Shown in pieces: positions 19,189 through 60,890 of a stretch of 64,000 bases of DNA. Source of the DNA: an uncultured virus (IMG/VR IMGVR_UViG_3300028591_000018) (taxonomy: Duplodnaviria > Heunggongvirae > Uroviricota > Caudoviricetes); IMG/VR virus record IMGVR_UViG_3300028591_000018. The stretch is one strand, 5' to 3'. The notes beneath the pieces are model-generated. The model had not been told where the DNA came from. It was given only the letters and a program-made list of their open reading frames with translations, and did not search any database. Each line of letters begins with the position of its first letter. The first letter of the stretch is position 1. Made by a program: the position numbers and the translations under genes.

Positions 19189-21987
19189 CTAAATATTGCC
19201 GTTCTTCTGTTCTCTAACGTAATAAAGGACAGTAGAAACCGGAATATTCAAAGATTCTGCGATCTCGGCATTAGAATAACCGGAACGGCGCAGAGAAAAT
19301 AATCTCGTGATTTTTGTATTGCTGAGCCCTTTTTCGGACCGTGGCGTAGCATACTCACGGACGGTATTCGTATCAGTAGCATCTAATATTTGCTTCAGCA
19401 GCGAATCAGATATTGCGCCGGCCTGAATAGCGGTCCACTCTTTCGGCGTAATATTAATCTTATAGCGCTGGGCACCTACTTCAAGCCGTGCAGCAGTCAG
19501 AAATTGCTGAGCGTACTTTCCGCTCTGCTTCTTGTCATCCCGAAGCTCCGGGTTCTCTTTGTAAAGTGCCTGCATGCGCACATTGGCACGGCGCTGGGCT
19601 TCACGTTCACGGGGGGCATTCAATCTCGAGCTGCGCAATTTTTCTTTAAGTGAATCCACTTCATTCTTAAAAACTTTCGCGGCAGACGGACTGTACTCCA
19701 GGTTCGGTGTATTGTACTTGTACTCTTTGCGAGCCTGATTGGCAAGCGCCTTGAGCTGTGATGCGTAACGGGCATAGAGCAACTCGGTCGGGTTCTGCTT
19801 TTCAGAGACAAGTTCATAAGGATCATCGATCTCGAGCATGCGGAAGCTCTCCTGAGTGCGGGTCTTCTCTCGGCCCTTCTCATCAATATAGTGGGCATCA
19901 AAGGCTTCTTTCCAAACCTTCTTGCCTGTCTCCTCATCAACATCAAATTCTCCGCGCCGCTTGGCAACACGTTCAGGGCTCTTGGCACGGGTCACGATAG
20001 TACCGGATCCATAAACCCAGCGACCATCCTCATTGTAGTGGCCCTGATATTTGTCCTTAAGCTCCTGGATCTTGTTCTCTTCTTCAGACAGCTTGTAGTC
20101 AAGCTTGTGCTTCTTGGCGTCAATGACAACCATTGAATGCTTCACTGCACGGGCAACCTCATCATCCGGAGCACCGGCAAGGGTCATGTCCATAATAAGA
20201 TTCGTGATCTTGCCCATCTCCATGTCTGTACGCTGCATGTACTTCATACCGGGCCGTTCAGGATATGAGACTTCAGGATCGAACCCTTCAAGCTCTTTCA
20301 AATATTGTCGATGAGAGACCTGCACTTTAGAGGATAATGGAATGACCATGACTGTGTCACCATCAAAATCAGCGCCGGACAGCTGCTTGGCTGTCTCTGC
20401 ATTAATACCGACTGCATCGGTCGGATTTTTAGTCAGCATAGAAATTCCTTCACGGTTCTTGTTGTTCACCGTAAGGACCGGGATCTCAAAAATTCCTCCA
20501 TGAGGGTAACGGACAAGCGCAACCTTCTCGCCATCCTTAAAGTTAGGAGCATAAATTTGGTCGTTCTTCATGCTCTTGATTGGAATAATGACCTGATAGC
20601 GCTGACGCGGAAGAGCTGCCGCATCCAGATGAACTGCAGTCGAGTCACAGTCTTCAGCAAAGGTTTCTAATAATCGGCGCTTGACGGTCGGATTTGTTAA
20701 ATTACAAATATCCTCGTACTCGGCCATCTTGTCTGCAATTGACAAATCAAGCTGATTTTTTACCAGCTTAATATTCTGCTTGGACAAAAATTGGGAAGGC
20801 AAAGATTTTGACCAGTCATTCCAGTCCCCTTCATCAGCACGTTTATTAATAAGCGATAATTTCCGTTCACCGGTCTTTGAGTCAATATAGTGGCTCTGGC
20901 CTTTTGCAGAAATATAGGAACCGAAGGGATTCATCGGATCATCAGTCTTAATATCCTTAAACGGGTCTTCGCCTTTCTCACGAGATTTTCGGGAATTGTA
21001 AATAATGTCATACCCATCCGGAATATCGTCGGAATATACTGCCATCCCTTTCATATATTTCTTTCCGTCCACTAAAATTCGGACTTGAGAATATCGGGAA
21101 CCGCCAAGTGATAAATCCTCCACACCGGGGCGAATTTGAATAAGGCCGTCACGCTGGTCACCGCCGTCTTCAATATATTTGACTAAAATACGTTTGCTGT
21201 CCATAGAAGCAGGATATTCAAATTTGTCAAATTTTTCTCCGCTTCCATCCTGAGAAGCATATTCAAATAATGGATTAATTTCTCCATACTGATATGCCTG
21301 ATTCTTCGGGGATCCGGGAGGACATAAAACCTTCAATGTCGTCCGCTGCCCATGTTCATTTGTAACCTGAGGCATGGAACCTACACGAACTTCATATCCT
21401 TCTTTCTTTAAAATATCGACAGCCTGTGTAAGCTTCTCTTTGGAAATATTCAATTCCCGATTTACTTCCGCGCCCACGTCGACCGGACCTTTTTCATCAA
21501 CTACTTTTTTCAAAAAATCAGCTGTCTGCTGCGCTTTATTCGCACGGCGCTGACGCTGCTTGTCAATAATTGAACGAAATGTTGATTCCGGAATACCCAT
21601 ACGCCGAGCTGCCTCGGTTTGAGATACTCCGTCTTTAATTAATTGGTTGGCCCATTGAATTCTGTATGCAGAAATATCGTTGTTTGATCTGCGGATCTCT
21701 GCACGAAGTTCAGATGTAGTAGAATATCCGCACTTCTTCGCGATCTCGATCTCAGAATATCCCTTGCGGCGCATCTTGCGCACACGGTTCAAAAAATCGA
21801 GTTCATGCTGAAAAGGAACTTCACCGGATCCCCAAGGGTATCGCCCTGAGTGTCTCTTTGTTCCGTAATGGGCGAAAAAATCCTTGTCTGCTTCCGGTGC
21901 GGCAACCGAAAGTAAAATATCCTGTGCAATGTCATTGTCAAGATTCATTGCCAGTGTAAACAAAATATTCTTTGCGATGCCGTTCAT
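19189..21987 (-). CDS. Single-chain two-barrel RNA polymerase (YonO/QDE-1-like) with HTH domains
   Basis: GADFDGD (DFDGD at 20356-20370), RYPH, DGLIQI/SQVR/MKG, VVIDAKK; HTH-like segments at both ends. Confidence 0.8.
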   Translation of the reverse strand: MNGIAKNILFTLAMNLDNDIAQDILLSVAAPEADKDFFAHYGTKRHSGRYPWGSGEVPFQHELDFLNRVRKMRRKGYSEIEIAKKCGYSTTSELRAEIRRSNNDISAYRIQWANQLIKDGVSQTEAARRMGIPESTFRSIIDKQRQRRANKAQQTADFLKKVVDEKGPVDVGAEVNRELNISKEKLTQAVDILKKEGYEVRVGSMPQVTNEHGQRTTLKVLCPPGSPKNQAYQYGEINPLFEYASQDGSGEKFDKFEYPASMDSKRILVKYIEDGGDQRDGLIQIRPGVEDLSLGGSRYSQVRILVDGKKYMKGMAVYSDDIPDGYDIIYNSRKSREKGEDPFKDIKTDDPMNPFGSYISAKGQSHYIDSKTGERKLSLINKRADEGDWNDWSKSLPSQFLSKQNIKLVKNQLDLSIADKMAEYEDICNLTNPTVKRRLLETFAEDCDSTAVHLDAAALPRQRYQVIIPIKSMKNDQIYAPNFKDGEKVALVRYPHGGIFEIPVLTVNNKNREGISMLTKNPTDAVGINAETAKQLSGADFDGDTVMVIPLSSKVQVSHRQYLKELEGFDPEVSYPERPGMKYMQRTDMEMGKITNLIMDMTLAGAPDDEVARAVKHSMVVIDAKKHKLDYKLSEEENKIQELKDKYQGHYNEDGRWVYGSGTIVTRAKSPERVAKRRGEFDVDEETGKKVWKEAFDAHYIDEKGREKTRTQESFRMLEIDDPYELVSEKQNPTELLYARYASQLKALANQARKEYKYNTPNLEYSPSAAKVFKNEVDSLKEKLRSSRLNAPREREAQRRANVRMQALYKENPELRDDKKQSGKYAQQFLTAARLEVGAQRYKINITPKEWTAIQAGAISDSLLKQILDATDTNTVREYATPRSEKGLSNTKITRLFSLRRSGYSNAEIAESLNIPVSTVLYYVREQKNGNI

Positions 21988-21993
21988 AAAAAA

Positions 21994-22557
21994 TTATGCC
22001 TCCATTTCCTTCAGCTGGATGTCTCTTAAAATTTTGTCGAAACTCTTGATCTTATCCATGATCTCAGAAATACGATCCGGATCCGGAGTTTCATAAATAA
22101 TCTCGTTGGACTGATAAATTCTCAGCTCAGTTTCAATCTCATGCGGATCAAAGTGATACTCGAGACAAAATAGCGCATTATAAATATGAAGCTGCTCCAT
22201 ATGAGCAGGGATGGTCCCCGTCTTCAGATCATGAATGCGCAATAAATTCTTTCGATAGCTGATCGCATCAGCAGTACCGAAGCAATTCTCTGAAAAATAC
22301 AGGATCTGCTCGGAATGCATCTTATACCCGATCGCATCATTGACAAACATATTTAATGTCAAATTCGACTTGGGCAGCCGCTGATTCAGCTTAATACACT
22401 GTGAAGCAAAATCATGCAGCATGGTTCCGCGTTCCTTTGCAAGATCATTCTGATAGGTTTCAATGAGTTTCTCGGGATCGTAATTGATCCAATGATACTT
22501 GGACGCACCTAAAAATGCGTGCCTACCCTCAAGGTTGGAATGATTGTTGAAGTTCAT
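21994..22557 (-). CDS. PD-(D/E)XK nuclease-like protein (DUF2800/Cas4-like)
   Basis: RGTMLH, FGTADAI, IHDLKTG, QLHIY. Confidence 0.75.
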   Translation of the reverse strand: MNFNNHSNLEGRHAFLGASKYHWINYDPEKLIETYQNDLAKERGTMLHDFASQCIKLNQRLPKSNLTLNMFVNDAIGYKMHSEQILYFSENCFGTADAISYRKNLLRIHDLKTGTIPAHMEQLHIYNALFCLEYHFDPHEIETELRIYQSNEIIYETPDPDRISEIMDKIKSFDKILRDIQLKEMEA

Positions 22558-22819
22558 AAAAAACCTCTTCCTTATTCTCAGGGCATATGAAACGAGAAAA
22601 TGACATGCGGTTCAGCATGTCAACGTAATATTCCTGGTTTGGCTGTTTGTGCTCATGCGCAGACTTTTTAGTTTCAAGCATTGCCCAGTGCTTTCCATAG
22701 AGCACCAAAACATCAGGAATGCCTTGCAAATAGTTCGCATCATTCTTCAAAACAACACAACCCGGAAAGCGCTCTTTCAATTCATCGATCACGCGCTTTT
22801 GAAATATTCTTTCAAGCAT
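22529..22819 (-). CDS. VRR-NUC domain nuclease
   Basis: ERIFQ..GIPDVLVL..LETK..QPNQ; start at MLERIF with GAAAGGA RBS. Confidence 0.85.
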   Translation of the reverse strand: MLERIFQKRVIDELKERFPGCVVLKNDANYLQGIPDVLVLYGKHWAMLETKKSAHEHKQPNQEYYVDMLNRMSFSRFICPENKEEVFYELQQSFQP

Positions 22820-22836
22820 TGTTTGTTTCCTTTCGA

Positions 22837-23000
22837 TTGTCTGAATATTAGAGCTGTCCTGGCCCACCTTCTATTTCCGCCATAGTAAAGGAGAAAAAAT
22901 GTAAAGGAGATTGGCCCATGAAAAATAGAAACCTATGAAGAAAGGGAGGATCTTCATTGGAAAATAGAAAGTGGGATAGGCCGGCCCTAATCTCAGACAA
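22837..23000 (-). ncRNA. Structured leader/ncRNA with anti-SD segments
   Basis: Nested inverted repeats (TTGTCTGA/TCAGACAA, ATTAGGGC/GCTCTAAT, CCCACTTTCTATTT/AAATAGAAGGTGGG) enclosing three CTCC(C)TTT tracts. Confidence 0.55.
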
Positions 23001-23070
23001 AAAAATAAGAGGCCATGTACTGATCATGGCTTCTTAAAAACAAAAGAGAGAAGAAACTATCTTCTTCTCT

Positions 23071-23098
23071 CTATAAAAGGGCATGTTTTTTATGCGAA
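23071..23098 (-). promoter_or_regulatory. Phage promoter motif copy 1
   Basis: TTCGCA-TAAAAAACATGCCC-TTTTAT-A. Confidence 0.7.
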
Positions 23099-23109
23099 GT
23101 CAGAAAATA

Positions 23110-23406
23110 TCAGATTCTGTCCTCGCGTTCATCGAGTTCATGCTGGTGATTCTTATGACAGATCACGCATTCGGGAAAATTCGTACGGCATGAATAACAT
23201 TCAGGGCCATAGGCTTCTACGTACTCGTCAAGAAATTCTTTCCTTGTGATGACTGCTCCGCACTTCGGACAAATATAGCATTCCTTTTGCGGATCCCACA
23301 TCATAAATACTCCGCAGCAATCAGTAAGTACACCTTCACCATCCTGGTCATAAACGTCTTCATAGCGGTCACCAAAAATGGCACCGCAATCCACATCTCT
23401 TATCAA
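23110..23406 (-). CDS. Cys-rich Zn-finger protein
   Basis: CC, CPKC, CYSC and CVIC pairs. Confidence 0.6.
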   Translation of the reverse strand: MIRDVDCGAIFGDRYEDVYDQDGEGVLTDCCGVFMMWDPQKECYICPKCGAVITRKEFLDEYVEAYGPECYSCRTNFPECVICHKNHQHELDEREDRI

Positions 23407-23634
23407 GTTCGGTTTGGCTCCTTTCGAAATATTAATGGTCTATCCATTATACCCGAAAGCAGCTCCCATTAACCAAATAGAAAATATTCGTCCCTACGAC
23501 CTTATCAACCTTATTGATCTTATTGATCTCATTGGTCTTATTGACCTTATAGGTTTTTTCAACCTTCCAAATCGGTTGAAAAATACCCATCTTCAAACCC
23601 CTTAAAATCAGCATGAAAACCCTCCAAAAACCGC

Positions 23635-23915
23635 TTCTGCCCATTTGCCCACTTTTTTTTCTATATTACTATATATATTACATTTTTCATTTTTTAATTT
23701 CATTAATAAAAAAGGTGGGCAAATGGGCAGAAAGCCCTTTTTTGATCAATTTTACGAGTAAATTTGCCAAAAATCTCTGCCCACTTTTGATTTTAAAAGT
23801 GGGCAATTGCCCACTTTTTTTGGGCAGAAAGCAATTTTTTCAACTTCCAAAACCCAAAAACCCAAAATAAAAGTGGGCAGAAGCCCATTTTTGGCCACAA
23901 AAGTGGGCAGAAAAA
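23635..23915. repeat. TGCCCACTTT/AAAGTGGGCA repeat cluster with AT-rich core; probable replication origin
   Basis: About 10 (T)GCCCA / TGGGC(A) units in both orientations; a ~24-bp inverted repeat flanks a ~50-bp AT-rich spacer. Confidence 0.65.
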
Positions 23916-24293
23916 TGGACATAAAATTCGGCACCAAAACCGCTATTTTTTAACCACTTTTTCCACCTTTAAATTGCCTGTTACAACCCCTCTGACAATG
24001 TTAGCACCAAGAATATCGATGCAGTCTTCCCGACCTTTAAATGGACATTTTTCGCAATTGTTCTTATTTTTTTCAAGATTCGTGCAGTTGTTCAAAATAT
24101 CAAGTGTATCATTAGCAGACTTAAATGTTAACATCATCTTGTTTCTCCTTTTCTGTTTCAGAAATATCAATGCCTTCAGCCGGCAGCTCACGCTTTACCT
24201 CAAATACTTCAATGGCTTCTTCTTTAGCCTTCTGTTCATTCAAGGCATCGATGTACACCTGAGCAATATTCTCAACGATCTTTTCAAAAATAT

Positions 24294-26039: not shown

Positions 26040-26354
26040 CTAGCAATTAATGCTAGGGTAATATGCTTCTGCCCATTCCTGGGCCATTTCTTCTGCTTCT
26101 TGCGGGGTTTCCGCAATAACACAGACTAACACATTTCTACTTCCTCCATGTTCATGGAGTTGTAGAATATATACACCTTCATCATCCTCCTCACTGGGAA
26201 TATAATTTCCCTGTGAGGGATTATCCGTTATATATTTATCCCAGGCACGAATTTTGTCCTGGGGCCAAATCTCGGCCTGACCGATAGTCAGACCGTCATC
26301 CCAATTATAAGAGTGGGAATAATTTCCCCACCCATTTATAAAATAAATGTTCAT
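26040..26354 (-). CDS. Acidic cassette gene
   Basis: MNIYFING...; AGGAGG RBS; own promoter and terminator. Confidence 0.75.
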   Translation of the reverse strand: MNIYFINGWGNYSHSYNWDDGLTIGQAEIWPQDKIRAWDKYITDNPSQGNYIPSEEDDEGVYILQLHEHGGSRNVLVCVIAETPQEAEEMAQEWAEAYYPSINC

Positions 26355-32659: not shown

Positions 32660-32770
32660 TACAAAAAAGACAGACAAGATCCACCCGCACCATATGGATC
32701 CTGTCTGCCAGAGGCTCACAAGGGTTATGGATTAAATTATTGGAAAGGAGGTTAGTTTGTAGTGCGGAGG
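32660..32770 (-). ncRNA. Candidate anti-SD small RNA ending in a terminator
   Basis: ORF-less gap containing AACCTCCTTTCC, followed by the GCAGACAGGATCCA/TGGATCTTGTCTGT stem and a T6 tract. Confidence 0.45.
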
Positions 32771-33079
32771 AAAATATCAAAGTTTAATCAGCTTTTGGAT
32801 CTCTCCAAGGATTTGTTCATCTTTGTTGATCACATCCGAACAAATCTTTAGCGTCTGAGCATCATGCTCAAGAATATCATTCATACGATTCAGGCTGTCT
32901 TTATATTTTTCTTCGAGTTCCGTTCGGAGCTCGTCCTGCATCGCTCGAATATTGCGGAGATCCTCATTGATCTTATGGTTGACGATCATACAAACAACCG
33001 CCAACCCCAAAATCCACGCAAAGAAAATAAAAAGGTAAAGTTCCATATCTACCATACTCCTCCTTATTTGTTGTACTCT

Positions 33080-33721
33080 TCATAAATACTTGTACTCTTC
33101 ATAAATACACTGAAGAATCGCCAAATTCTTCGGACCGCAGCGTTTCAGCGAGTCTAACGACTCATACGGCATATCAAGCAGATCCTTCAATGTTTTCAGT
33201 CCGGTTGCTTTCAGCATACGGCTGAACTGACTCTTTGTATGATAAGAAGTCATATCACCGAATCGCTGATCGTAAATATCAATCAAAAGGATCTCGTCTT
33301 TTGACTTGGCGACCATCTTGCTTAATTCTTCCGGAGTCGGCCCTACGATCTTATGAGAATATAAATCGTAGAGCTGTTTCTTGATGTCATCCAGATCGTT
33401 CAGGCATCGTCCCTGTGAATGCTGCAAATACCTTTGCATCCTTTCCAGTTCTTCCATTTTAGAAACAATATTTTCAGGAAGCGGATGTTTTTTAAGATGC
33501 AAAGCCATCGTTACATCAATTGAATCCTCCAAATTCTTCTTATGTTCTTCGAAAGAACTCCGGAGTTCATTGAGCCCTTCATTAAGAATATAAGTCTGGG
33601 CCGAAACATTCACCAGATTCGTATTGAGATCGTCAAACTTGCTTTCCAAAGCAGTCAGACGTTCTGCCAGGGATCCGATTTCAGTCTGAGAAACACCACC
33701 AAGAAATTCAACAAAAGACAT
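33080..33721 (-). CDS. Coiled-coil protein with C-terminal alpha-CTD/HhH-like domain
   Basis: RMLKATGLKTLKDLL..ESLDSLKRCGPKNLAIL; RBS AAAGGAGAAAAAATG. Confidence 0.6.
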   Translation of the reverse strand: MSFVEFLGGVSQTEIGSLAERLTALESKFDDLNTNLVNVSAQTYILNEGLNELRSSFEEHKKNLEDSIDVTMALHLKKHPLPENIVSKMEELERMQRYLQHSQGRCLNDLDDIKKQLYDLYSHKIVGPTPEELSKMVAKSKDEILLIDIYDQRFGDMTSYHTKSQFSRMLKATGLKTLKDLLDMPYESLDSLKRCGPKNLAILQCIYEEYKYL

Positions 33722-33734
33722 TTTTTCTCCTTTT

Positions 33735-59211: not shown

Positions 59212-59535
59212 TCATTTTTTCTGATCCTTTTCATATTGTCGTTTGAAGAATTCAAAAGCCTTGTCGACCGTAAGATAACCGACTACTTCATCACCATATT
59301 CTTCTTCTGTAATATCAAAACCCATCGCTTCCAGAAGTCCGTACTCATGACCATATGAACCCATATTGCACACAACATCCCCACATCCAGGCTTCCTAAG
59401 TTCCCATTTTCCATCTGAGGAATACCGGATCTGTCCGCCAAATATTGGATTATCATCACATAAGAATTCATGCGGAATTCCGGCGATTTCAAGTTCTTCA
59501 TGCAATTTCTGTAACGGTTTAATTAAATCTGTCAT
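59212..59535 (-). CDS. Hypothetical protein
   Basis: MTDLIKP with GGAGG RBS; GSYGHEYGLLEAMG..VVGYLT. Confidence 0.7.
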   Translation of the reverse strand: MTDLIKPLQKLHEELEIAGIPHEFLCDDNPIFGGQIRYSSDGKWELRKPGCGDVVCNMGSYGHEYGLLEAMGFDITEEEYGDEVVGYLTVDKAFEFFKRQYEKDQKK

Positions 59536-59559: not shown

Positions 59560-59658
59560 AAAAAAAATAAAAGAAGTTGAACCGAATCGAACGGTTCCAG
59601 GCGGGCAGACAAGACCCGTCGCCCACTCACAAACTTTCGTTTGCTTTAACTTCTTCTC
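59560..59658 (-). ncRNA. tRNA-like small RNA (non-canonical)
   Basis: 8-bp closing stem, GAAA-tetraloop arm, central arm and GAACCG-TTCGATT-CGGTTC T-arm; own promoter (copy 12, 59657-59684) and T tract. Confidence 0.65.
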
Positions 59659-59683
59659 ATTAAAGTCCATGTTAATATTGCGT

Positions 59684-59826
59684 AAAAAATAGCAGGAGAT
59701 GTGTTAACTATAAACTCTACCTGTTGTGCAGCTATCTCACAACAGCAACTTTATAGCAACGGATATCTCCTGCTTAATTTAATGCCAGCTCATTTTTTCT
59801 CCTTTCTTTAAGTGAACTAGCTCCTA
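59684..59826 (-). ncRNA. Small RNA with SD and MSWH minigene (59779-59793)
   Basis: Promoter copy 13 at 59823-59850; AAAGGAG-AAAAA-ATG AGC TGG CAT TAA; long AGCAGGAGAT/ATCTCCTGCT terminator stem. Confidence 0.65.
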
Positions 59827-59848
59827 TTTAGACTATGTTTTTCATGCG

Positions 59849-59954
59849 AAAATAAATAGGAGAAGCGCCTGCAATTAACGCTTCTCCTTTCAAATAATTA
59901 ATAATATTTGTACAGTGCTAGGTCATTTTTCCTCCTTCCTATTGCACTCTCATC
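59849..59954 (-). ncRNA. Small RNA with SD and MT minigene (59918-59926)
   Basis: Promoter copy 14 at 59953-59980; AAGGAGG-AAAA-ATG ACC TAG; AGGAGAAGCG/CGCTTCTCCT terminator. Confidence 0.65.
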
Positions 59955-59979
59955 ATTATAGAAGATGTTTTTTTCGCGG

Positions 59980-60071
59980 AAAAAATAAGAGCCTTTGCAA
60001 CGACTCTTATTTTTAATAAATATCTTTGCACCTCCTTTCTTCATAGGAACCTGCTTTCGGGTATGCAGGTC
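59980..60071 (-). ncRNA. Small RNA with orphan SD
   Basis: Promoter copy 15 at 60070-60097 (TTCGCA-N14-TATAAT); ACCTGC/GCAGGT hairpin; AAAGGAGGTG; AAAAATAAGAG/CTCTTATTTTT terminator. Confidence 0.6.
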
Positions 60072-60097
60072 ATTATAGAGAATGTAAATCTTGCGAA

Positions 60098-60753: not shown

Positions 60754-60836
60754 AAATTTCTCCTTTCGTGAGTCTTCTATCTCCGAAACTTATTCTATGA
60801 TAGCCAGGCGTAATCTAAAATAAAAACTTATGTTGA

Positions 60837-60890
60837 AAAAATAAAAGGAGTTGTAAAAATAAAAGGAGTTGTAAAAATAAAAGCCCTTGT
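60837..60890. repeat. 18-bp tandem repeat (2 exact copies and 1 variant)
   Basis: AAAAATAAAAGGAGTTGT twice, then AAAAATAAAAGCCCTTGT. Confidence 0.85.

Follow-up and report, generated by a model that had tools for sequence, protein, structure and literature searches.

Locus and operon leader

The sequence analysed is a stretch of 64,000 nucleotides (nt) from the uncultured-virus record IMGVR_UViG_3300028591_000018, referred to below as the window, and the subject is a structured element on its minus strand, directly ahead of an operon that encodes a putative RNA polymerase (RNAP). Judged from sequence comparison, the element appears to be a lineage-specific structured insert of about 160 nt in the 5′ untranslated leader of this operon, in a phage of the rumen Firmicute type. 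It displays tracts complementary to Shine–Dalgarno (SD) sequences, and the tentatively preferred reading is that the leader RNA pairs in trans with small RNAs from the early region of the same phage. Nearly all genes found in the open reading frame (ORF) survey of the 64-kb window lie on the minus strand; the window is phage or prophage DNA and encodes an integrase, an anaerobic ribonucleotide reductase, a terminase and a connector. No near-identical record was found in the phage collection searched, and no tRNA or tmRNA was called in the tRNA/tmRNA search.

The operon comprises the genes of a VRR-NUC-like protein, a Cas4-like exonuclease and a two-barrel RNAP-like protein (Table 1). The last of these carries GADFDGD at residue 540 and helix-turn-helix (HTH) domains at both termini. 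In passages of a preprint (10.1101/842583), its homologue in Faecalibacterium phage FP_oengus is described as a YonO/RdRP-like putative RNA polymerase with a DxDGD loop and terminal HTH domains; the word “promoter” is absent from that text. Comparison with solved structures gave no significant sequence match to the 932-residue protein, and comparison with NCBIfam gave weak HTH matches and nothing else. On annotation and motif, the name “RNAP operon” seems reasonable for the three genes.

The minus strand reads, in this order from 23098 to the ATG at 22819, a promoter-like motif, hairpin 1, hairpin 2, the nested structure of the element and the ribosome-binding site (RBS) of VRR-NUC. Queries with the exonuclease and VRR-NUC returned 160 related loci, to which FP_oengus was added. 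With a score threshold of at least 16 of 24 upstream of VRR-NUC, a motif of the form CGCGAAAAAAACATGCCCTTTTATGAAGAGAG was found in 130 sequences (128 related loci, FP_oengus and the window), and a hairpin with a U run follows it directly on the 3′ side in the relatives as well as in the window. Because the distance from motif to ATG has a median of 77 nt and is at most 100 nt in 110 of the 130 leaders, the 244-nt leader of the window is read as the result of an insertion. Leaders longer than 100 nt number 20 of 130, have heterogeneous contents and include those of the window, of L001 (264 nt) and of L002 (147 nt). The latter two belong to complete 90-kb records, G1 (90,190 bp) and G2, which are syntenic with the window at about 66-88% identity per aligned block.

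Table 1. Positions and strands of the features discussed (window coordinates).
Feature	Position	Strand	Description
Structured leader element	22839..22997 (arms about 22839-22878 and 22960-22997)	−	Long imperfect closing helix around an 80-nt interior, from folds and inverted repeat
Tract 1	22932..22957	−	Hairpin AUGAAGA-UCCUCCCUU-UCUUCAU plus AGG; UCCUCCCUU is the 9-nt loop
Tract 2	22901..22914	−	AAUCUCCUUUAC; anti-SD, in open region; probability of being unpaired 0.38
Tract 3	22882..22902	−	(A)CAUUUUUUCUCCUUUACUAUG; CAUUUUUUCUCCUUU in open region; anti-SD and anti-AUG; probability of being unpaired 0.45
Promoter-like motif	23067..23098	−	TTCGCATAAAAAACATGCCCTTTTATAGAGAG; conserved ahead of the VRR-NUC/Cas4/RNAP operon
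Hairpin 1 and U run	23035..23072	−	Promoter-proximal, terminator-like; 12-pair stem 23072-23045, then TTTGTTTTT (terminator scan); family-wide
Hairpin 2 and U run	23001..23030	−	GCCATG...CATGGC CTCTTATTTTTTT; common to window, G1 and G2 only
VRR-NUC RBS	22834-22825 (RBS and ATG, 22817..22834)	−	GAAAGGAAAC
VRR-NUC-like gene	22529-22819 (ATG 22819)	−	phrog_93; first gene of the operon
Cas4-like exonuclease gene	21994-22557	−	phrog_3953
Gene of 932-residue two-barrel RNAP-like protein	19189-21987	−	phrog_4291, matched end to end
Early unit 1	59981..60097	−	Promoter-like motif, 5′ hairpin, single-stranded CCUAUGAAGAAAGGAGGUG, terminator
Early unit 2	59848..59979	−	Promoter-like motif, hairpin with 15-nt loop AAGGAGGAAAAAUGA, terminator
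Early unit 3 (“MSWH minigene”)	59683..59850	−	Promoter-like motif, conserved 5′ hairpin with SD-like loop, structured 3′ domain, terminator
Iteron/AT-rich region	23635..23962		TGCCCACTTTT repeats in both orientations; core CCCACYTT recurs in the inner arms of the element (22863, plus; 22975, minus)

Structure of the leader element

The element is an inverted repeat with 30-nt arms that are 80% complementary, and the helix extends to about 40 nt per arm. The minus-strand RNA (23005..22825) folded to −58.9 kcal/mol (z=−4.93), and none of 200 shuffles folded as well. Outer, middle and inner stems are nested and enclose the hairpin of tract 1 together with an open region that holds tracts 2 and 3. 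Fold and sequence confirm what an earlier note on this DNA had described, namely nested stems around three anti-SD tracts on the minus strand, and show these tracts to be CU-rich; its statement that the structure ends just ahead of the VRR-NUC RBS is likewise correct, the outer stem ending at 22839 and the RBS beginning at 22834. In the models, the closing helix insulates the interior from the RBS.

Rfam 15 gave no match in the whole window at gathering thresholds. At E ≤10, only noise was returned over the element (L20_leader, 24.0 vs 58.7 bits; LhrC, 18.4 vs 110; RsaE, 15.3 vs 79), and nothing better over the early units. Copies of the element were sought in viral contigs with exact and gapped patterns (none found) and in genome contigs with the upstream 98-residue protein (one irrelevant match); a scan of metagenomes with VRR-NUC reached 65% identity at best. 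A minus-strand ORF of 59 codons (22848-23027) was considered as a gene and rejected, as it has no PHROG match, lacks an SD and is not conserved in G1.

Contigs of a sheep-gut metatranscriptome that are 100% identical to the window cover 22684-22883 and 22881-23057, and the latter bridges hairpin 2. These contigs are unstranded and give neither ends nor level, and the parts they leave uncovered carry no meaning.

Probable early small-RNA units and their complementarity to the element

The early region (60097..59671, minus strand) consists of three tandem units, each composed of a promoter-like motif, a short RNA and a terminator (hairpin and U run). According to the folds, SD-like purines of units 2 and 3 lie in the loop of the 5′ hairpin, and the “codons” past the AUG form the 3′ arm of its stem. 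Homologues of unit 3 occur in G1, G2 and a fragment (G003) that lacks the operon; a search of viral contigs with the unit 3 pattern returned these three only. Alignment of unit 3 from three genomes and consensus folding gave 31 predicted pairs, six of them with changes on both sides. The 5′ stem is kept in G1 and G2, and the two-sided changes lie in the 3′ domain. The ORF of unit 3 spans four codons in the window, four in G003, 11 in G1 and more than 40 in G2, where it runs through the terminator. Because the codons form the 3′ arm of a conserved hairpin and the ORF length varies, the minigene reading is unlikely, and the MSWH minigene, the RBS and start of which the earlier note placed at 59791-59805, is better explained as a stem arm of a small RNA. 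On these models, the early units are probably small RNAs with SD-like loops or linkers.

A fourth early unit (59562-59682, minus strand) consists of a promoter-like motif followed by an RNA of about 90 nt in which an acceptor-like stem (GAAGUU.../...AACUUC) is combined with a T-arm-like hairpin, GGAACCGUUCGAUUCGGUUC, and with a U run. The unit is kept in G1, G2 and G003, with compensatory changes in the T-arm, and was called neither by ARAGORN nor by Rfam. The ORF list wrongly opens a 152-residue ORF inside this unit; a gene start at 59535 is more likely. Farther upstream (60800-60870, minus strand), TTTTTACAACTCCTTTTA is duplicated in tandem (two copies) and is like the downstream half of the promoter-like motif.

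The sequence CCTATGAAGAAAGG was found at 22932-22945 (plus strand) and at 60034-60047 (minus strand), that is, two matches with at most one mismatch, against 0.02 expected. The 14-nt complementarity between element and unit 1 that this represents had been reported earlier as extendable past a bulge; it was reproduced, and tract 1 and unit 1 form 18 Watson–Crick pairs with one bulge. The sequence AAAGGAGAAAAAATG was found at 22887-22901 (plus strand), 33719-33733 (minus) and 59791-59805 (minus), with one further site at one mismatch, against 0.08 expected. Here the exact 15-nt match asserted in the earlier note exists, but its meaning is reduced by the background: a 13-mer core of AAAGGAGAAAAAATG recurs at four further minus-strand RBSs or gene starts, and natural RBS windows of 26 nt have an exact match elsewhere on the strand of at least 14 nt in 17 of 83 cases and of at least 15 nt in nine of 83. 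On the same evidence, the gene starting at 33721, also named as a target, shows generic RBS similarity and was dropped.

Tract 3 has complements in units 3 and 2 as well as in generic RBSs. For tract 2, no specific partner was found, the longest exact match elsewhere being 10 nt. A strict SD-plus-ATG pattern occurs three times on the plus strand of the whole window, twice within the element, and 41 times on the minus strand; the clustering of the tracts is unusual and exceeds chance. No extended homology between the element and the early region was found past the 15-mer.

Predicted pairing

Interactions were scored with windowed, accessibility-weighted energies, and 82 natural RBS windows served as the background. 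With units 1, 2 and 3, the element reached −17.9, −15.5 and −13.8 kcal/mol, respectively (RBS windows: median −8.55, best −15.2). When 467, 517 and 605 seeds along the complete minus strand were compared for units 1, 2 and 3, the element came out as the best partner of each unit, in part because anti-RBS tracts are rare; conversely, no better partners of the tracts than these three units were predicted in the 64-kb window. A second intergenic anti-SD stretch (32665-32776, minus strand), with tracts AUUUUCCUCCGCAC and AACCUCCUUUCC, was the second-best predicted partner of all three units; plus-strand RBS-like sites are present there at 32745-32746.

In the shuffle test, the SD core was kept fixed, 100 shuffles were made per unit, and those that reached the observed duplex energy were counted. 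For the window, the counts were 0 (unit 1), 4 (unit 2) and 8 (unit 3); for G1, 0 with each of its units A and B; and for G2, 3 with unit B′ and 83 with unit A′. By this comparison, which the earlier note had proposed, five of the seven leader–unit pairs (at most 4/100 shuffles) show complementarity beyond the shared SD core; window unit 3 and G2 unit A′ are not among them.

Relatives G1 and G2

Even in their coding DNA, window and G1 diverge by about 20-30%. The G1 element (L001 2049-2216) is homologous to that of the window and has a closing helix of 29 bp, followed by a U run. Its sense strand folds to −61.7 kcal/mol (z=−6.4), as compared with −53.6 kcal/mol for the antisense strand, and all four mismatches of its arms are G·U pairs on the sense strand (by-eye reading). 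Tract 3 is the best-conserved interior segment between window and G1 (17 of 19 positions; score reached by 4 of 1000 shuffles).

The G1 leader tract matches unit B of G1 over 16 of 16 nt; when the forward strand of this 90-kb genome was searched with the 15-nt pattern, no other exact match appeared. The same leader region pairs with unit A through 18 Watson–Crick pairs and one G·U pair. Genome-wide, the top partners of the G1 leader were a gene RBS (−15.1 kcal/mol) and then unit B (−14.9), and the top partner of the G2 leader was unit B′ (−13.4). The window leader reached −28.7 kcal/mol with its own unit 1 but −18.4 and −20.9 with the first units of G1 and G2; the G1 leader reached −27.0 with its own unit A and −18.3 to −19.8 with foreign first units. 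The preference of these two leaders for their own first units thus amounts to about 8-10 kcal/mol, in a comparison of three related genomes. One position in the pairing with unit 3 or B covaries: after GGAG, the two window partners have A, the two G1 partners T. G2 lacks the large element and supports pairing weakly.

The reverse complement of the G1 leader aligns to unit A over 29 columns, a score that none of 500 shuffles reached. This homology suggests that the tracts are inverted copies of early-unit loops, in which case descent could explain part of the complementarity. The pattern of hairpin 2 was found at 26 loci in viral contigs, only two of which (G1 and G2) adjoin VRR-NUC.

Promoter-like module, insertion slot and further features

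About ten modules similar to motif plus hairpin lie elsewhere on the minus strand of the window. The module spans about 33 nt (TCGCG, an A/T-rich run, ACAT or ACAA, a CTTTA-like segment and GAG) and is followed by a hairpin with a U run and an RBS; approximate starts are 62710, 60097, 59975, 59850, 59682, 58139, 56556, 54015, 35561, 35150, 34357 and 23098. The motif itself may act as a promoter, as its sequence and position suggest. No sigma-70-type site was found in a search of 22500-23500, and the spacing of the module does not fit sigma-70; the module may represent the promoter class of the YonO-like polymerase of the phage, or of the host polymerase with a phage factor. Whichever polymerase uses the motif would have to read through, because a hairpin with a U run separates motif and gene in every member of the family. 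According to the Discussion section of the YonO paper, the flap domain, which multi-subunit polymerases require for hairpin-dependent pausing and termination, is missing from this type of enzyme; read-through of the leader hairpins could be explained in this way. A GC-rich hairpin directly followed by a U run, as in intrinsic terminators, is present in hairpins 1 and 2 and in the G1 element; the large element of the window has no U run, its 3′ flank being CAAUCGAAAGG. A plus-strand promoter motif inside the 5′ end of VRR-NUC was dropped as a candidate, since G1 lacks it (by eye).

The interval from promoter to VRR-NUC is an insertion hot spot. Among the relatives, the leader of L162 contains a tRNA-like 3′ half, that of L004 (about 2120-2210) a second promoter-like unit resembling the promoter of window unit 3, and that of L011 a same-strand ORF of about 150 codons. 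In the remoter relatives L130, L133 and L137, hairpins of the form ACCUCCUUUC...GGAGGU stand immediately 5′ of the true VRR-NUC SD and could, by their sequence, be classical anti-SD/SD translational attenuators.

The iteron region resembles an origin of replication or a major operator. It contains a 25-nt inverted repeat (96% complementary) that flanks a 48-nt AT-rich stretch. G1 has the same iterons as the window; G2 and FP_oengus use GTGGCCAAAAA(CCCAC). Compared with the repeat consensus TGCCCACTTTT, the arms of the element contain the same core CCCACYTT and differ in the flanks; the helix arms may have a protein-binding role, possibly beside an RNA role. Between a gene for a 98-residue zinc-ribbon-like protein and the iterons, four to six tandem copies of a CTTATTGAT-like repeat with a 9-nt period are present (23498-23550). 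On the minus strand, the RBS regions of the gene starts at 26354 and 35756 are identical over 23 nt (ATTCTCTCCAGGAGGAAAAATGA), which points to duplication of a gene start or of a cassette.

Interpretation and alternatives

The preferred explanation, with a probability of roughly 0.45, is that the sense-strand leader RNA, with its displayed anti-SD tracts, pairs in trans with the early small RNAs that carry SD-like loops, that this arrangement arose by inverted duplication, and that it affects the fate of the mRNA or titrates the small RNAs rather than switching the RBS. The closing helix would hold an interior that displays CU-rich anti-SD (and anti-AUG) tracts on the gene-sense strand, which would require a transcript of the minus strand that continues past both hairpins. 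The tracts are complementary to SD-like, purine-rich stretches in the loops or linkers of two to three putative small RNAs, which would be made from the tandem promoter–terminator units of the early region. Leader and small RNAs would base-pair through loop–loop or loop–linker contacts, and the pairing would couple early transcription to the fate of the operon mRNA through processing, stability or mutual titration. The tracts would most likely have originated as inverted copies of early-unit hairpin loops.

Several results weigh against this explanation. The plus strand of the element folds to the same −58.9 kcal/mol (z=−5.32), so the fold alone cannot choose the strand, and the G·U pairs in the window arms divide 2 and 2 between the strands (by-eye reading). 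Tract 1 has a probability of being unpaired of only 2e-4 and is mostly buried, because half of it sits in the hairpin stem. The depth of the RNA-library contigs (2.5-5.4) is like that of the flanking genes, and DNA carry-over in the library could explain them. On co-folding, the net gain was −1.0 to −1.4 kcal/mol, no better than the median of the 82 RBS windows (−1.8). With tracts 1, 3, 1+3 or 1+2+3 blocked, the probability that the stretch from RBS to AUG is unpaired stayed at 0.005 (leader from hairpin 2) or 3e-5 (leader from the putative start), so that no output mechanism is evident; together with the small co-folding gain, this speaks against the leader switch opened by small RNAs that the earlier note had put forward.

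The complementarity is open to objections of its own. As AAAGGAGAAAAAATG is the generic RBS of the phage, its 15-nt match is weak evidence, and the fit of unit 3 was, as given above, equalled by 8/100 SD-preserving shuffles. Local alignment of the element plus strand with the early region scored 30, which was reached by 2 of 500 shuffles and by seven of 82 natural RBS windows. Taken alone, the matches in the window do not rise above the SD-containing background, the comparison by which the earlier note had asked to be judged. Specificity for unit 3 or B is seen only in G1, the window and G2 leaders showing none (−21.0 with the own unit vs −21.5 and −20.7). The G2 leader has no 13-of-15 match, pairs poorly with its own unit A′ (−12.7) and reaches −24.1 with unit A of G1. 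The 29-column homology also means that the complementarity may have been inherited through inverted duplication instead of selected. The position of the tracts relative to the terminator-like hairpins differs among window, G1 and G2, and no further carriers of the arrangement were found in the scans of viral contigs, genome contigs and metagenomes, which leaves three related genomes. As a whole, the earlier interpretation is partly supported; its other proposal, a repressor of several early RBSs, is conjectural.

Among the alternatives, a leader structure that acts in cis only survives best, although it is unlikely. The helix would be a processing signal (a substrate of the RNase III type) or a termination signal (a third intrinsic terminator, as in G1) that determines the amount of operon mRNA or the place of its 5′ end, and the anti-SD tracts would be leftovers with no partner. 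Long stems in phage leaders are known substrates of RNase III. The closing helix is the feature kept between window and G1 despite little similarity of the interior, it separates interior and RBS in the models, and the U run of G1 and the two terminator-like hairpins already in the leader fit this account. It does not explain, however, why tract 3 is the most conserved part of the interior or why the tracts fit their own genome and win over SD-preserving shuffles, and the window helix lacks the U run.

Next in rank, and improbable, is a neutral relic: the element would be a decaying inverted duplicate of early-unit pieces in an insertion hot spot, and the complementarity a by-product of common descent. 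The mixed contents of the 20 long leaders (a tRNA-like piece, additional promoter-like units, and ORFs in either direction) agree with this, as do the homology between the G1 leader and unit A, the better fit of the G2 tract to unit A of G1 than to its own units, and the plus strand of the window, which reads ATG-TAA where G1 has an ORF of 40 codons. Yet window and G1, despite their divergence, each keep 15-18 (near-)contiguous bases complementary to their own units, whereas decay would be expected of a relic that predates their split; if the two lineages had instead each acquired a recent duplication in this leader independently, that in itself would suggest selection.

It is more doubtful still that the plus (antisense) strand is the functional one, either through true RBSs for tiny ORFs (a start–stop, MKNRNL, a 10-residue ORF and a 28-29-residue TTG ORF) or as an antisense small RNA like those of the early units. 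SD, spacer and start codon are correctly spaced three times on this strand, an SD also precedes opposite-strand ORFs in the leaders of G1 (40 codons), G2 (21) and L152 (39), and the plus-strand hairpin AUGAAGA-AAGGGAGGA-UCUUCAU is built like the SD-loop hairpins of the early units. But neither a sigma-70-type nor a phage-type promoter was found on this strand, and no U run follows the hairpins in that direction. The opposite-strand ORFs share neither sequence, length nor frame: those of the window element have 1, 6, 10 and 28-29 codons, the ORFs of 40 residues in G1 and 21 in G2 are unrelated, and tblastn of the G1 peptide against the related loci and the window gave a best E value of 0.49 besides itself. 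The G1 element, moreover, folds 8 kcal/mol better on the sense strand.

A DNA-level element, in which the two inverted copies of the iteron core CCCACYTT in the inner arms would share one phage DNA-binding protein with the iterons and form an operator or roadblock between promoter and operon, fits the location of the core sites (nine of 10 window CCCACYTT sites within 22863-23907, seven of them in the iteron/AT-rich region and two in the element arms; all seven GCCCACYT sites of G1 in its iteron cluster, six, or its leader element, one) and the combination of a different iteron (GTGGCCAAAA) with absence of the large element in G2, but is very improbable, because the arms of about 40 nt go far beyond an 8-nt core, their flanks differ from the iteron consensus (8 of 11, by-eye reading), the homology of the window and G1 elements makes their coincidence one event and not two, and such a site does not account for the anti-SD tracts; it could, however, exist side by side with the RNA role.

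The trans-pairing explanation can be extended to a far-reaching idea, to which we give very little credence. The early units would be SD mimics, with loops that offer a nearly maximal SD, and would occupy the anti-SD of the host 30S subunit, or other CU-rich targets, early in infection, and the operon leader, with tracts resembling the 16S 3′ end such as GAUCCUCCCUUUCU, would be a timed antidote that soaks them up once middle transcription starts: an RNA-only early-to-middle switch built by inverted loop duplication. Unit 1 contains GAAAGGAGGUG, which we take to be an 11-nt complement of the 16S 3′ end.

The timing of phage genes is mostly ascribed to proteins (sigma factors, antiterminators and phage polymerases), and RNA–RNA control in Firmicute phages of gut and rumen is, to our knowledge, almost unexplored. 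The arrangement described here hints at an RNA–RNA timer that links the early units and the polymerase operon. If the trans-pairing explanation is true, early small RNAs of the phage talk to the leader of its own RNA-polymerase operon, and an evolutionary route to RNA–RNA control becomes visible, because a hairpin that displays a loop has, in its own reverse complement, a ready kissing partner. By-products of the analysis are a testable promoter-like module for a very large phage family with YonO-like polymerases, a set of phage small-RNA candidates, and the warning that a strong RBS consensus can yield artefactual “minigenes” and 15-nt RBS matches.

Comparison with known systems

Minigenes of the lambda bar type combine a strong SD with a reading frame that stops only a few codons past its start. 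Units 2 and 3 and the plus strand of the element share SD, start and early stop with them; the difference lies in the “codons” of the two units, which are a hairpin arm, and in the varying ORF length, which render a minigene reading unlikely. In attenuation of the pT181/pIP501 type, a cis-encoded, fully complementary antisense RNA contacts a nascent, terminator-bearing leader through loop–loop contacts. A leader with intrinsic terminators and a predicted antisense contact by loops are found here as well, but the partners are encoded in trans and form 15-19 pairs, and the geometry of tracts and terminators varies among the three genomes.

RNA sponges and anti-small RNAs, such as the prophage-encoded AgvB/AsxR and 3′ETS-leuZ, titrate a small RNA through seed complementarity. 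The element resembles them in having several complementary sites on one RNA, and some known sponges are prophage-encoded; its sponge-like sites, in contrast, lie inside the closed helix of a 5′ untranslated region. RsaE/RoxS, LhrC and the UCCC-motif RNAs of Staphylococcus are free-standing small RNAs of the host, the C/U-rich loops of which bind SDs and repress mRNAs. Like RsaE/RoxS and LhrC, the element has CU-rich anti-SD motifs in loops or open regions, several per RNA; unlike them, it is part of a phage mRNA leader, its best partners are themselves small RNAs, and its Rfam scores for LhrC and RsaE, given above, lie far below the thresholds.

The c4 RNA of phages P1 and P7 (immI operon) acts on a site further down its own transcript, where it blocks the icd/ant RBS. 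The element has no sequence or Rfam relation to c4 and differs in that its partners are separate small RNAs 37 kb away and the RBS of its own operon is not a predicted target. What the two would have in common is a structured RNA in the leader of a phage operon, short tracts complementary to RBS-containing sequence, and action by RNA–RNA pairing, which is established for c4 and proposed here. In logic, the element would stand nearest to the c4 RNA of P1/P7, the CU-loop small RNAs of Firmicutes and the RNA sponges.

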